Shown in pieces: positions 1,819-28,100 of a stretch of DNA of 64,000 bases. The notes under the pieces were generated by a model that saw only the letters and a program-made list of their open reading frames with translations, did no database searches and had not been told where the DNA came from. Position numbers and translations under genes: made by a program. Origin of the DNA: Escherichia coli (GTDB lineage: Bacteria > Pseudomonadota > Gammaproteobacteria > Enterobacterales > Enterobacteriaceae); the NCBI RefSeq assembly GCF_024298765.1, contig NZ_CP101210.1. One strand, given 5' to 3'. The stretch's first letter is position 1. Every line of letters starts with the position of its first letter.

Positions 1819-3138
1819 ATGGATATCTGCTCCCGAAACGAGAAATTAGCGATTAGAAGACCAGCGATACTGGTTGCACTGGCACTTTTACTGTGTAGTT
1901 GCAAAAGCACGCCTCCAGAGTCAATGGTGACACCACCAACAGGTTCGAAGCCACCAGCTACGACGCAACAATCGTCACAACCGATGCGTGGCATCTGGCT
2001 GGCCACAGTGTCTCGCCTCGACTGGCCACCGGTTTCCTCGGTTAACATTAGTAACCCCACCAGCCGGGCCCGTGTACAACAACAGGCGATGGTCGACAAA
2101 CTGGATCATCTGCAACGTCTCGGCATCAACACGGTCTTTTTCCAGGTCAAGCCGGACGGTACCGCCCTGTGGCCATCGAAAATTTTGCCGTGGTCCGATC
2201 TTATGACCGGAAAGATTGGTGAAAATCCAGGTTACGATCCGCTGCAATTTATGCTCGACGAAGCCCACAAGCGTGGGATGAAAGTACACGCCTGGTTTAA
2301 CCCCTATCGCGTATCGGTTAATACGAAGCCCGGTACTATCAGGGAACTGAATAGCACTCTGTCTCAACAACCAGCGAGCGTCTATGTGCAACACCGCGAC
2401 TGGATCAGAACGTCCGGCGATCGCTTTGTCCTCGACCCGGGCATACCTGAGGTTCAGGACTGGATCACATCAATAGTCGCGGAAGTGGTTTCCCGCTATC
2501 CGGTAGATGGCGTGCAGTTTGACGACTATTTCTATACTGAGTCACCAGGTTCACGGCTAAATGATAACGAAACGTACCGCAAATACGGAGGCGCATTTGC
2601 GTCAAAAGCAGACTGGCGGCGCAACAATACTCAGCAGTTAATTGCAAAGGTATCGCACACTATTAAAAGCATTAAGCCGGAAGTCGAATTTGGCGTTAGC
2701 CCGGCAGGCGTGTGGCGTAACCGATCACACGATCCGCTCGGTTCCGATACCCGAGGCGCGGCAGCCTATGACGAATCCTACGCTGACACCCGTCGATGGG
2801 TGGAACAAGGATTGCTGGATTACATTGCTCCCCAAATTTACTGGCCGTTCTCACGGAGTGCCGCACGTTATGACGTTTTGGCAAAATGGTGGGCGGATGT
2901 CGTTAAACCGACCAGGACCCGCCTGTATATCGGTATCGCCTTCTATAAAGTAGGAGAACCTTCAAAGATAGAGCCAGACTGGATGATTAACGGCGGCGTA
3001 CCGGAACTGAAAAAGCAGCTCGATCTTAACGATGCCGTGCCAGAAATTAGCGGCACAATCTTGTTCCGTGAGGACTATCTGAATAAGCCACAGACTCAAC
3101 AAGCGGTCAGCTATCTGCAAAGTCGTTGGGGCAGTTAA
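1819..3138 (+). CDS. yddW: Lipoprotein YddW, glycoside-hydrolase-like
   Basis: 439-aa ORF; signal peptide with a lipobox (LLLCSCKS); recognised by translation and position between gadC and dosC. Confidence 0.85.
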   Translation: MDICSRNEKLAIRRPAILVALALLLCSCKSTPPESMVTPPTGSKPPATTQQSSQPMRGIWLATVSRLDWPPVSSVNISNPTSRARVQQQAMVDKLDHLQRLGINTVFFQVKPDGTALWPSKILPWSDLMTGKIGENPGYDPLQFMLDEAHKRGMKVHAWFNPYRVSVNTKPGTIRELNSTLSQQPASVYVQHRDWIRTSGDRFVLDPGIPEVQDWITSIVAEVVSRYPVDGVQFDDYFYTESPGSRLNDNETYRKYGGAFASKADWRRNNTQQLIAKVSHTIKSIKPEVEFGVSPAGVWRNRSHDPLGSDTRGAAAYDESYADTRRWVEQGLLDYIAPQIYWPFSRSAARYDVLAKWWADVVKPTRTRLYIGIAFYKVGEPSKIEPDWMINGGVPELKKQLDLNDAVPEISGTILFREDYLNKPQTQQAVSYLQSRWGS

Positions 3139-4920: not shown

Positions 4921-7320
4921 ATGAAGCTAACCGATGCGGATAATGCCGCCGATGGCATTTTTTTCCCCGCCCTTGAGCAAAATATGATGGGCGCGGTGTT
5001 AATTAACGAAAATGATGAAGTGATGTTTTTCAACCCCGCCGCAGAGAAGCTCTGGGGGTACAAACGTGAAGAAGTCATTGGCAATAACATTGATATGCTG
5101 ATTCCGCGGGATTTGCGTCCTGCGCATCCTCAATACATTCGTCACAACCGTGAAGGTGGTAAAGCTCGCGTCGAGGGGATGAGTCGGGAGCTGCAGCTGG
5201 AGAAAAAAGACGGCAGTAAAATCTGGACCCGTTTTGCGCTATCGAAAGTGAGCGCCGAGGGGAAAGTTTATTACCTGGCGCTGGTACGGGATGCCAGCGT
5301 AGAAATGGCGCAAAAAGAACAGACCCGACAATTGATTATTGCCGTTGACCATCTCGACCGACCGGTGATTGTCCTCGATCCGGAACGCCATATTGTGCAG
5401 TGCAATCGCGCATTTACCGAAATGTTTGGTTACTGCATTAACGAAGCCAGCGGTATGCAGCCCGATACACTCCTGAACATTCCAGAATTCCCTGCTGATA
5501 ACCGTATTCGTTTACAGCAGTTGCTATGGAAAACCGCCCGCGATCAGGACGAATTTCTGCTGTTGACGCGCACCGGTGAAAAAATCTGGATTAAAGCCTC
5601 TATCAGCCCGGTTTATGACGTGCTCGCGCATCTGCAGAACCTGGTAATGACATTCTCGGATATCACCGAAGAAAGGCAAATCCGCCAGCTTGAAGGCAAT
5701 ATTCTCGCCGCCATGTGCAGCAGCCCCCCATTTCATGAAATGGGGGAAATCATTTGTCGTAACATCGAATCTGTTCTCAACGAATCGCATGTTTCGCTGT
5801 TCGCGCTGCGCAACGGGATGCCGATACACTGGGCGTCATCTTCGCACGGTGCAGAAGTTCAAAATGCGCAAAGCTGGTCAGCGACCATTCGTCAGCGCGA
5901 TGGCACGCCTGCGGGGATCCTGCAAATTAAAACCTCGTCAGGAGCAGAAACCAGCGCCTTTATCGAACGCGTGGCAGATATCAGCCAGCATATGGCCGCG
6001 CTGGCGCTGGAACAGGAAAAAAGCCGTCAGCATATTGAACAACTCATCCAATTTGATCCGATGACCGGTCTGCCAAATCGCAATAACCTGCACAATTACC
6101 TCGATGACCTGGTCGACAAAGCCGTCTCTCCGGTGGTGTATCTCATCGGTGTTGACCATATTCAGGATGTGATTGATAGCCTTGGCTATGCGTGGACCGA
6201 TCAGGCATTGCTGGAAGTGGTCAATCGCTTTCGTGAAAAACTCAAACCGGATCAGTATCTCTGTCGTATTGAAGGTGCGTCTTTTGTCCTCGTGAGCCTG
6301 GAAAACGATGTCAGTAACATTACCCAGATCGCCGATGAGCTACGGAATGTGGTCAGCAAGCCGATAATGATTGACGATAAACCATTCCCGCTCACCTTGA
6401 GCATTGGCATCAGCTACGACGAGGGTAAAAACCGCGATTACCTGCTCTCCACTGCTCACAATGCAATGGATTTTATTCGCAAAAATGGCGGTAACGGCTG
6501 GCAGTTCTTCAGCCCGGCGATGAACGAAATGGTAAAAGAGCGTTTGGTTTTAGGCGCAGCGCTAAAAGAAGCGATTAGTAATAACCAACTTAAACTGGTT
6601 TATCAGCCGCAAATCTTCGCAGAAACGGGTGAACTGTACGGCATCGAAGCCCTTGCTCGCTGGTACGATCCCCTGCATGGTCATGTGCCCCCTTCACGGT
6701 TTATTCCTCTCGCAGAAGAGATTGGTGAAATCGAAAATATTGGGCGCTGGGTCATCGCGGAAGCTTGCCGTCAGTTAGCAGAATGGCGTAGCCAGAATAT
6801 TCATATCCCGGCGTTATCCGTTAACTTGTCTGCGCTGCACTTTCGCAGTAATCAGCTGCCTAATCAGGTATCTGATGCAATGCACGCCTGGGGTATTGAC
6901 GGCCACCAGCTGACGGTGGAAATCACGGAAAGCATGATGATGGAACACGATACCGAAATCTTTAAGCGCATTCAGATCCTGCGCGATATGGGCATCGGTT
7001 TATCGGTAGATGATTTTGGTACAGGCTTTTCCGGATTATCCCGCTTAGTCAGTCTTCCGGTAACGGAAATCAAAATTGATAAAAGTTTTGTCGATCGTTG
7101 TCTGACCGAAAAACGCATCCTTGCCTTACTCGAAGCCATTACCAGCATTGGGCAAAGCCTCAATTTAACCGTCGTGGCGGAAGGCATCGAAACCAAAGAG
7201 CAATTTGAGATGCTACGCAAGATCCACTGTCGCGTTATTCAGGGATATTTCTTTTCCCGCCCCCTGCCCGCCGAAGAAATTCCAGGCTGGATGAGCAGCG
7301 TGTTACCGCTGAAAATCTGA
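4921..7320 (+). CDS. dosP: Heme-PAS c-di-GMP phosphodiesterase DosP (PAS-GGDEF-EAL)
   Basis: ORF track gives 4897..7320; start moved to the ATG at 4921 (RBS gaggtaa 6 nt upstream), giving the 799-aa product; degenerate GGDEF plus an EAL domain (EAL at EALAR); forms an operon with dosC. Confidence 0.9.
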   Translation: MKLTDADNAADGIFFPALEQNMMGAVLINENDEVMFFNPAAEKLWGYKREEVIGNNIDMLIPRDLRPAHPQYIRHNREGGKARVEGMSRELQLEKKDGSKIWTRFALSKVSAEGKVYYLALVRDASVEMAQKEQTRQLIIAVDHLDRPVIVLDPERHIVQCNRAFTEMFGYCINEASGMQPDTLLNIPEFPADNRIRLQQLLWKTARDQDEFLLLTRTGEKIWIKASISPVYDVLAHLQNLVMTFSDITEERQIRQLEGNILAAMCSSPPFHEMGEIICRNIESVLNESHVSLFALRNGMPIHWASSSHGAEVQNAQSWSATIRQRDGTPAGILQIKTSSGAETSAFIERVADISQHMAALALEQEKSRQHIEQLIQFDPMTGLPNRNNLHNYLDDLVDKAVSPVVYLIGVDHIQDVIDSLGYAWTDQALLEVVNRFREKLKPDQYLCRIEGASFVLVSLENDVSNITQIADELRNVVSKPIMIDDKPFPLTLSIGISYDEGKNRDYLLSTAHNAMDFIRKNGGNGWQFFSPAMNEMVKERLVLGAALKEAISNNQLKLVYQPQIFAETGELYGIEALARWYDPLHGHVPPSRFIPLAEEIGEIENIGRWVIAEACRQLAEWRSQNIHIPALSVNLSALHFRSNQLPNQVSDAMHAWGIDGHQLTVEITESMMMEHDTEIFKRIQILRDMGIGLSVDDFGTGFSGLSRLVSLPVTEIKIDKSFVDRCLTEKRILALLEAITSIGQSLNLTVVAEGIETKEQFEMLRKIHCRVIQGYFFSRPLPAEEIPGWMSSVLPLKI

Positions 7321-7333
7321 TAAATTCCTCTCG

Positions 7334-7352
7334 CCCGCACTCGCGGGTTTTT
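7334..7352 (+). terminator. Rho-independent terminator after dosP
   Basis: Hairpin cccgc-actc-gcggg followed by ttttt, 14 bp after the dosP stop. Confidence 0.75.
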
Positions 7353-7445
7353 ATTTAACGTGACACTGTCACTTAAATACTGTGATTTCCGCTACGTTTA
7401 GTTGGACAACGACAACGCATAGCCATGTCACAACAATCCCTTCTC

Positions 7446-7505
7446 AGCCTGATGTGATTGTGCTGACGCATCAGGCAATCACGCGCCTGACGCGTCATCC
7501 GGCAA
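7446..7505. repeat. REP-like palindromic element(s) in the dosP-osmC spacer
   Basis: Imperfect palindromes cctgatg...catcagg and gcctgacgcgtcatccggca resemble the REP consensus; located where the ddp operon sits in K-12. Confidence 0.5.
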
Positions 7506-7509
7506 CACT

Positions 7510-7941
7510 TTACGATTTCAACTGGTAATCAAGCGTAATTTCAGCTTTCAGTACCTGAGAAACCGGGCATCCTGCTTTTGCTTTCTGGATAATGCCGTCA
7601 AAAGTAGAGGCATCAATACCCGGCACCGCAACTTCGCTTTTCAGTGCGATTTTAGTAATCGCAAAACCGGCATCCACTTTATCCAGCGACACATCTGCGG
7701 TGGTATCAATCGATGTTGGCGTGAATCCCGCTTCCCCCAGCATTAATGAAAGCGCCATTGAGAAACATGCGGCATGCGCTGCGCCAATCAGTTCTTCAGG
7801 GTTGGTTCCTTTTTCGCCTTCAAAACGCGTGTTAAATCCATACGGCTGTTGGTTCAGCACGCCGCTCTCGGTGGATACAGTTCCCTTCCCGCGTTTGATA
7901 TCGCCTTCCCAGTGTGCCTGACCTTTCTTATGGATTGTCAT
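7510..7941 (-). CDS. osmC: Osmotically inducible peroxiredoxin OsmC
   Basis: 143-aa ORF; OsmC/Ohr family; translation recognised. Confidence 0.93.
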   Translation of the reverse strand: MTIHKKGQAHWEGDIKRGKGTVSTESGVLNQQPYGFNTRFEGEKGTNPEELIGAAHAACFSMALSLMLGEAGFTPTSIDTTADVSLDKVDAGFAITKIALKSEVAVPGIDASTFDGIIQKAKAGCPVSQVLKAEITLDYQLKS

Positions 7942-8285
7942 TGTTGCTCTCCTGTGGGCTTAAAAAGGAAATTATAGACTACGTGAGAAACAGCACGAGG
8001 ATAAGCAGGATATTCCGAATAAAATCCGGCGAAAACATTATCTCTGTACTTAAATTAAATTCCCACAATAGATAACAGGAAATATATGACTCAAAAGATA
8101 TTGTATCAATATTAATCGATTCACACCAATAACAATCCCTATCAATATCATAGTGTTAAAATATAAAACTCATCAACCAGGACTAATCTTAACAACGAAG
8201 CGGCAAATATTTGCCATGCTGAATGTGCTTTATAAATCTGCGATCCGTAGCAGACACCATAAATACACAGACACGGAGAATCACT

Positions 8286-8501
8286 ATGTTTACTTATTAT
8301 CAGGCAGAAAATTCAACAGCAGAACCCGCTCTGGTTAATGCCATTGAGCAAGGCCTTCGGGCAGAGCACGGTGTTGTCACTGAAGATGACATTCTCATGG
8401 AGCTGACCAAATGGGTGGAAGCTTCTGATAACGACATCCTCAGTGATATCTACCAGCAAACGATCAATTATGTGGTCAGTGGCCAGCACCCTACGCTTTA
8501 A
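8286..8501 (+). CDS. bdm: Biofilm-dependent modulation protein Bdm
   Basis: 71-aa product from the internal ATG at 8286 (MFTYYQAENSTAEP...); the ORF-track entry 8223..8501 is an upstream extension. Confidence 0.85.
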   Translation: MFTYYQAENSTAEPALVNAIEQGLRAEHGVVTEDDILMELTKWVEASDNDILSDIYQQTINYVVSGQHPTL

Positions 8502-12168: not shown

Positions 12169-12175
12169 TAAATAT

Positions 12176-12199
12176 CCTCCGGCATAGCCGGAGGTTTTT
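12176..12199 (+). terminator. Rho-independent terminator after yddM
   Basis: Hairpin cctccgg-cata-gccggagg followed by ttttt. Confidence 0.7.
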
Positions 12200-12202
12200 C
12201 AA

Positions 12203-12875
12203 ATGCGCCTATAAGGCTCTCTTACCAGCCGCGCCCTAACAGGCGCACACGATCTGACATTTGCATCCAACTTCGTTACTTACGGCCCGTAAACGGGCTG
12301 CCCGGATAGGGAATCGATAACTGCTCTCCCATTTTATCCTCTTCAAGCTGGTGCTTTATGTAATCCTGTATCTTCGCCGTGTTCTTACCCACCGTATCGA
12401 CGTAGTACCCTCTGCACCAGAACTCTCTGTTCCTGTATTTGAATTTCAAATCACCAAACTGCTCGTAAAGCATCAGACTGCTTTTCCCTTTCAGATATCC
12501 CATAAAGCCGGATACACTCATTTTGGGCGGGATCTCCACAAGCATATGGATATGATCTGCACAGCATTCAGCTTCAAGAATCCGTACGCTTTTCCACTCA
12601 CACAGCTTTCTCAAAATACTGCCTATTGCTCTACGCTTCTCTCTGTAGAACACTTGTCTTCGGTATTTTGGCGCAAAAACTATGTGATATTTACAGTTCC
12701 ATCGGGTGTGCGCTAAGCTCTTTTCGTTCCCCATTGGGACCCCCTTTTGATTTCTTGTTTGACACTTGCAGTTGCCAGACCGCAAGGTGTTTTAACAAAT
12801 CAAAAGGGGTTTTAATAACTGGCTCAAAGCTGAAAGCTTTCCGGAACCCCCAGCCTAGCTGGGGGTTTTCTGTGC
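12203..12875 (-). mobile_element. IS200 insertion sequence (IS200/IS605 family); boundaries approximate
   Basis: Contains the Y1 (HUH) transposase gene, an RBS-sequestering stem upstream of tnpA, and the left-end hairpin (aaacccccagctaggctgggggtt on the minus strand, + coordinates 12843..12870); ends not mapped to the base. Confidence 0.8.
12276..12734 (-). CDS. tnpA: IS200 transposase TnpA (Y1 HUH transposase)
   Basis: 152-aa product starting MGNEKSLAHTRWNCKYHIVFAPKYRR with the HIHMLVEIPP (HuH) motif; recognised as essentially the Salmonella/E. coli IS200 TnpA. Confidence 0.9.
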   Translation of the reverse strand: MGNEKSLAHTRWNCKYHIVFAPKYRRQVFYREKRRAIGSILRKLCEWKSVRILEAECCADHIHMLVEIPPKMSVSGFMGYLKGKSSLMLYEQFGDLKFKYRNREFWCRGYYVDTVGKNTAKIQDYIKHQLEEDKMGEQLSIPYPGSPFTGRK

Positions 12876-12878
12876 ACA

Positions 12879-12909
12879 AAAAAATGGCGCTTCTTAAAGC
12901 GCCATTTTC
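12879..12909 (-). terminator. Rho-independent terminator of the fdnGHI operon
   Basis: On the minus strand, hairpin aaaatggcgctttaagaagcgccatttt followed by a T-run, 20 bp past the fdnI stop. Confidence 0.7.
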
Positions 12910-28021: not shown

Positions 28022-28100
28022 TGCCTGATGCGCTTCGCTTATCAGGCCTACAACCGGACTAATGTAGGCCGGATAAGGCGTTTACGCCACATCCGGCAAC
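28022..28100. repeat. REP elements (BIME-like pair) between yddE and nhoA
   Basis: Two palindromic units, gcctgatgcgcttcgcttatcaggcctac and gtaggccggataaggcgtttacgccacatccggca, matching the REP consensus. Confidence 0.75.

Follow-up and report, generated by a model that had tools for sequence, protein, structure and literature searches.

In Escherichia coli MG1655 and in one K-12-like strain, the genes of this region are arranged in the order dosP-ddpX-ddpA-ddpB-ddpC-ddpD-ddpF-osmC, with 6277 bp separating dosP from osmC. In the 64,000-nucleotide stretch of E. coli DNA analysed here (the window), osmC instead follows dosP after a spacer of only 189 bp, and ddpXABCDF is missing from this position, ~6.09 kb of K-12 DNA in all. 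A preliminary description of the window, made from its letters alone, read this arrangement as a clean presence/absence polymorphism in which REP-like palindromes might mark either a recombination scar or the ancestral empty site. This locus raises the question of whether the operon was lost from the site or had never occupied it, and of what the palindromes at the junction record.

The starting observations of that description were borne out. The K-12 gene order that it gave, with ddpXABCDF between dosP and osmC, matches both MG1655 and the K-12-like strain, and the genes and coordinates that it gave for the window, including the absence of ddp, are as it described them. The window order is gadC, digH, dosC and dosP on the + strand, then osmC on the - strand, followed by bdm, sra, maeA and adhP, such that dosP and osmC form a convergent pair flanking the spacer (7321-7509). 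The sequence of strain 104 is 100% identical to a 1201-base junction query (window 6800-8000), and its RefSeq annotation places nothing between dosP and osmC.

Two other features of the surrounding DNA were recorded. An open reading frame at 1819-3138 (439 aa) has no NCBIfam match at E<=1e-3 and carries the RefSeq name digH (family 10 glycosylhydrolase). An IS200C-family element lies at 12173-12880, between yddM and fdnI, with tnpA on the - strand at about 12276-12734; the yddM-fdnI gap of K-12 comprises 353 bp unrelated to this element.

Anatomy of the dosP-osmC spacer

Alignment of the spacer to the dosP-ddpX and ddpF-osmC junctions of K-12, which had been proposed as a check on the preliminary description, proved workable and allowed the breakpoints to be placed (Table 1). 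On the left, the alignment to K-12 runs from window position 1 to positions 7396-7399, such that ~76 bp of the 257-bp dosP-ddpX spacer, those next to dosP, are kept. On the right, the alignment starts at 7466, and 44 of the 55 bp of the K-12 ddpF-osmC spacer are kept. Between the two aligned flanks are ~66 bases that are absent at either K-12 junction. The only microhomologies found at the junctions are candidates of 2-4 nt (CG, GCT), none of which yields exactly the junction seen here.

Table 1. Coordinates of genes and sequence features at the dosP-osmC junction of the window.
Feature	Position	Strand	Basis
dosP	4921..7320	+	NCBIfam NF008467 DosP equivalog, 1635 bits; RefSeq annotation of strain 104 (identical sequence)
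dosP downstream region common to K-12	7321..7396	+	Aligned to L001 10522-10597/10600, 3 mismatches
dosP intrinsic-terminator-like hairpin GCCCGC ACTC GCGGGT, then T-run TTTTTATTT	7330..7353	+	Terminator scan
Left junction TTTAGTT, 7 nt	7397..7403		Hand alignment to ddpF sequences
Internal ddpF relic	7404..7464	+	Corresponds to K-12 ddpF nt 436-497, 61 nt
Chimeric 'REP-like' palindrome GCCTGATG..CATCAGGC	7447..7476		Left arm ddpF codons, right arm spacer
Strong hairpin, osmC 3' region	7464..7497		13-nt arms, 12/13 paired, about -20 kcal/mol
ddpF-osmC spacer remnant	7466..7509	+	Aligned to L001 16755-16798, 3 mismatches
osmC	7510..7941	-	TIGR03562, 204 bits; RefSeq annotation

The preliminary description held that the spacer contains only a terminator and REP-like palindromes. 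Both kinds of element are indeed present. The segment at 7330-7353, with a GC-rich hairpin and a T-run just past the dosP stop codon, has the form expected of a Rho-independent terminator and probably serves as one; the terminator scan returned two overlapping hits at 7330-7348, compared with 0.3 expected in shuffled sequences, and the terminator-like sequence is also conserved in K-12. However, a third component had been overlooked, namely the 61 nt at 7404-7464 that resemble an internal part of ddpF.

This segment is colinear with ddpF, on the same strand, and positioned between the two flanks. It corresponds to the portion of the gene that starts at the ABC signature and stops shortly before Walker B (GQRQRIAIARAL..QPDVIVL region), with identities of 49/62 to K-12 ddpF and 51/62 to ddpF of strain OkiPb01695. 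A 1-nt deletion after 7425 shifts the reading frame, and the two frames on either side of it read GQRQRIA and PSQPDVIVL, where DdpF has ..GGQRQRIAIARALSSQPDVIVLDEP... Aligned to the 6154 bp that K-12 has and the window lacks, the segment gave a local score of 69, a value reached by 0 of 1000 shuffled versions (mean 24, maximum 36). Because ABC ATPases are strongly conserved in this part, the possibility of a match to a paralogue was checked. A search of all genomes at E<=10 returned one match per ddp+ genome (about 4285 genomes), always within ddpF, and no paralogue match among these. The segment 7404-7464 is therefore a decayed and frameshifted relic of ddpF. The adjoining TTTAGTT may represent further decayed ddpF sequence (TTC/TTT TCC GG.., F-S-G codons), although it is too short for a test.

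A foreign or divergent ddpF allele was also considered as the source of the relic, and was rejected within the limits of the genomes sampled. No ddpF labelled as E. coli is more than 82.3% identical to the relic, and similarity among the fetched loci declines from E. coli ddpF to the versions of divergent Escherichia, then Citrobacter, then Enterobacter. The OkiPb01695 allele is an ordinary one, being 98-99% identical to K-12 ddpF.

Distribution of the junction among E. coli genomes

The survey set comprised 5426 complete E. coli genomes. The 1201-base junction query is contiguous in 1116 of these and falls in two separate places in the remainder. A 76-base query carrying both junctions (7395-7470) has one full-length match in each of the same 1116 genomes, and the 1117th record that it returned is a match to ddpF. 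K-12 ddpF itself is present in 4293 of the 5426, and the two states together cover almost all genomes. The presence/absence polymorphism proposed in the preliminary description is therefore real. The 76-nt junction could be used as a simple sequence marker for the scar-bearing clade.

Carriers of the junction include the classical B2 strains ATCC 11775, 536, SE15, APEC O1 and ST131. The haplotype of the window itself (>=99% identity) occurs in 79 genomes that are largely poultry-associated, some of them APEC O78:H4, and this clone differs from B2 by 1.2-1.7% in the junction region. Strain names suggest that it is probably ST117, phylogroup G, a placement to be read with the knowledge that O78:H4 is also found in ST23/C. 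Since the window belongs to this poultry-associated clone, which differs from B2, the loss of ddp is not strictly confined to B2. Both junctions are identical across the approximately 1116 genomes that carry them, which points to one event with a single origin, whether passed down vertically or carried between lineages through homologous recombination.

Other lesions were encountered at the same locus. An IS1 element lies inside ddpF in strain MB56, ddpF is reduced to its first 72 nt in strain 504838, and the gene is frameshifted in strain OkiPb01695 (L003:8566-9493), while ISEc52 lies inside dosP in strain E5. In E. coli STEC1587 (L086, NZ_CP129259.1; 8695-9175), an independent and larger deletion runs from just past digH into osmC, such that dosC, dosP and all ddp genes are gone and osmC is truncated. 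A further arrangement is found in 'E. coli strain E69' (CP089930.1), a divergent Escherichia with only 86-87% identity over gadC-dosP. Here, a frameshifted omptin-family gene (Pfam PF01278) occupies the 1.3 kb between osmC and dosP (L005:5380-6694). This interval contains neither ddp nor a ddpF relic, and the omptin-family gene therefore represents an independent replacement at the same site.

Loss of ddpXABCDF and competing explanations

The direction of the change was assessed with outgroups, for which species-representative genomes among the OsmC matches listed were examined by tblastn with the K-12 proteins; this set is without E. albertii, E. fergusonii and the named cryptic clades. Among the matches listed, ddpF is directly beside osmC in Enterobacter, the ddp operon is likewise beside osmC in Lelliottia, and ddpF is ~6.8 kb from osmC in Citrobacter and in a divergent Escherichia (L006). 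Because the relic is present in the spacer and ddp resides near osmC in other genera, the presence of ddp is the older state and the junction of the window the derived one.

The 6.8-kb interval that separates osmC from ddpF in L006 (10430-17270) and in most Citrobacter (loci L007-L021) holds a gene cluster that E. coli does not have. It encodes a short-chain dehydrogenase, a transporter, a 3-hydroxyacyl-CoA dehydrogenase, a thiolase, CoA-transferase A/B and a LysR regulator.

We hypothesize that the 189-bp spacer is a deletion scar left in a descendant of a strain that carried ddpXABCDF, and we regard this reading as very probably correct. The flanks are colinear with K-12 while the genes between them are missing, a disabled residue of ddpF remains in place, and the intact arrangement is ancestral. 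The ancestor would have had ddpXABCDF at this position, an arrangement that persists in most E. coli, and its descendants would then have lost the operon through at least two breakpoint pairs, because an internal piece of ddpF survives between two breakpoints. One deletion, of about 5.65 kb, would have extended from the ddp promoter region through ddpX, ddpA, ddpB, ddpC and ddpD and taken the initial ~435 nt of ddpF; the other, of about 0.44 kb, would have taken the terminal ~430 nt of that gene together with 11 nt of the adjoining spacer. The approximately 61-69 nt of internal ddpF stranded between them would since have decayed, acquiring 12 substitutions and a frameshift. The deletions would have spared the dosP terminator and the 3' hairpin of osmC, leaving both convergent flanking genes intact. 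We infer the number and order of these events from the arrangement of the breakpoints. The polymorphism is thus not 'clean', as had been proposed, since an internal ddpF fragment persists between two separate breakpoints.

The consequence of the scar is the loss of the D-Ala-D-Ala dipeptidase and of a dedicated dipeptide importer. The scar itself is probably functionless, as it contains no annotated gene and as a scan of 7100-8300 against Rfam at E<=1 found no RNA family.

Two properties of the relic count against this deletion-scar explanation. The relic is short (61 nt) and corresponds to the most conserved part of ABC ATPases, and its divergence exceeds what the flanks predict, such that a simple recent loss leaves part of the data unexplained. 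Relative to K-12 ddpF, the relic carries 12 substitutions in 61 positions and one indel (~20% diverged), whereas the flanks differ by 3-9%; the adjacent non-coding flanks have 6 differences in 120 positions (relic versus flanks, Fisher p = 0.003). At four-fold degenerate sites of gadC, digH, dosC, dosP and osmC combined, 95 of 1100 differ (8.6%). The neutral expectation for the relic is 3.4-5.5 changes, giving a Poisson P of 2e-4 to 1e-2. Nine of 11 relic substitutions are GC to AT, and the GC content is 49% compared with 60%.

We considered three sources for this excess: a long pseudogene phase before the deletions, an older scar haplotype whose flanks were homogenised by recombination, or mutagenic repair at the deletion. 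Perhaps the flanks understate by a wide margin the age of the ddp-less haplotype or of an earlier pseudogene stage. Recombination with ddp+ strains could have kept the flanks similar, but could have overwritten the relic only by restoring the operon. Such an old scar, which would refine rather than replace the deletion-scar reading, is a tentative proposal that we consider somewhat doubtful. It would accommodate both the contrast between relic and flanks and the AT-enriched composition of the relic. However, the sample is very small, and AT-biased mutation acting on unconstrained DNA may outpace change at four-fold sites. Moreover, six of the relic changes fall in a stretch of 18 nt, a clustering that suggests a small number of multi-base events, perhaps a single one, and not gradual accumulation, and the relics of B2 and the poultry-associated clone are only ~1.5% apart, just as their flanks are.

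A stronger version, in which the ddp-less haplotype is far older than its flanks and the relic alone keeps its true age, is unlikely in our estimation, as is the alternative that a localized burst of mutagenesis accompanied repair of the deletion. If either were true, the 61-nt relic would constitute a small natural clock or record of operon loss in B2/G. Templated mutation from a quasi-palindrome was also tried as a source of the changes at 7425-7441 and was rejected: when these were compared by hand with the arm at 7451-7467, three improve the pairing, one worsens it and one is neutral.

The palindromes bear on a different proposal, namely that the operon left by a single clean excision between REP or other repeats that flanked it, with REPs remaining as the scar. 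The palindrome at 7447-7476 does have REP-like ends (GCCTGAT..ATCAGGC), and a loose end-motif regular expression picked it together with two genuine REPs at 28023-28097. These two (28023-28047 and 28068-28097; GCCTGATGCGCTTCGCTTATCAGGC and GCCGGATAAGGCGTTTACGCCACATCCGGC) provide an in-window comparison for the junction palindrome. A search with the REP consensus (GCCKGATGNCGRCG head, stem, CTTATCMGGCCTAC tail) allowing <=3 mismatches gave no match in the window, but this search was too strict, as it also missed the genuine REPs. The MG1655 record used here carries no repeat_region feature across 49 kb, and its silence at this spacer is thus uninformative. All that remains of the preliminary suggestion that REP sequences may mark the scar is the position of the right breakpoint, directly against the base of a conserved hairpin. 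This hairpin, at 7464-7497, already exists in the K-12 ddpF-osmC spacer, is 2 bp longer in the window owing to the junction, and is the main structure predicted for the osmC 3' region in the window and in K-12 alike.

The remainder of that suggestion is not supported. The left arm of the 7447-7476 palindrome, GCCTGATG, aligns to ddpF codons (CAG CCT GAT GTG here, CAG CCT GAC GTG in K-12) and is palindromic only after the C-to-T change that converts GAC to GAT, and the right arm is part of the hairpin conserved in K-12. The left junction has no palindrome, and the K-12 sequence at the left breakpoint has neither a REP head nor a REP tail motif. Segments 7462-7512 and 7395-7470 each have a single match per genome (median 1) at a threshold as loose as E<=10, in searches insensitive to matches shorter than ~25 nt. 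At this sensitivity, the spacer segment is not dispersed in many copies per genome as REPs are, nor is the palindrome an independent extragenic unit, given that its left arm derives from coding sequence. The retained internal piece of ddpF, in turn, demands two breakpoint pairs. We therefore consider a single excision between repeats very improbable, and 7447-7476 is a chance chimera made by the deletion.

Least credible of all is that the dosP-osmC junction is the original empty site into which ddpXABCDF was later inserted in other phylogroups: B2 is often put at the base of the E. coli tree, and some relatives, such as Salmonella enterica subsp. arizonae and Citrobacter amalonaticus, have no ddp beside osmC, but a ddpF fragment resides in the spacer in the right place and orientation, ddp lies beside or near osmC across several genera, and the site is therefore a scar.

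Comparison with known systems

The erosion of bacterial pseudogenes by deletional bias is a general concept, and the deletion scar at dosP-osmC resembles its outcome: a dispensable ddp operon has shrunk to a short, frameshifted, AT-enriched fragment, and in other strains the operon has been damaged independently, whether by IS1 within ddpF, by frameshift, by truncation or by a larger deletion. Relative to this concept, nothing at the locus is unusual except for the divergence of the relic above expectation.

The link to REP/BIME elements is weak. Like these, the junction palindrome is situated outside genes, between convergent genes, and exhibits GCCKGATG head motifs. However, half of 7447-7476 is coding relic, the segment lacks both a CTTATC tail and the GC-rich stem found inside REPs, and its interior is dissimilar to those of the genuine REPs at 28023-28097. 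REP-like ends can thus arise by chance where coding and spacer sequences are joined.

The loss of ddp is already known, having been published in 2009. Touchon et al. (2009) name ddpFDCBAX as one of the functions that B2 strains specifically lack, which is the same operon with the same presence/absence pattern. In the part of that paper concerned with these functions, ddp is only a gene-content entry, whereas the junction anatomy, the relic and the two breakpoints come from the present analysis. Although the significance is small beyond bookkeeping, this comparison identifies what has been added here: the leftover ddpF fragment proves that the direction of the polymorphism is loss, more than one break appears to have been required, and the loss is common to B2 and to a poultry-associated clone, probably ST117/G.
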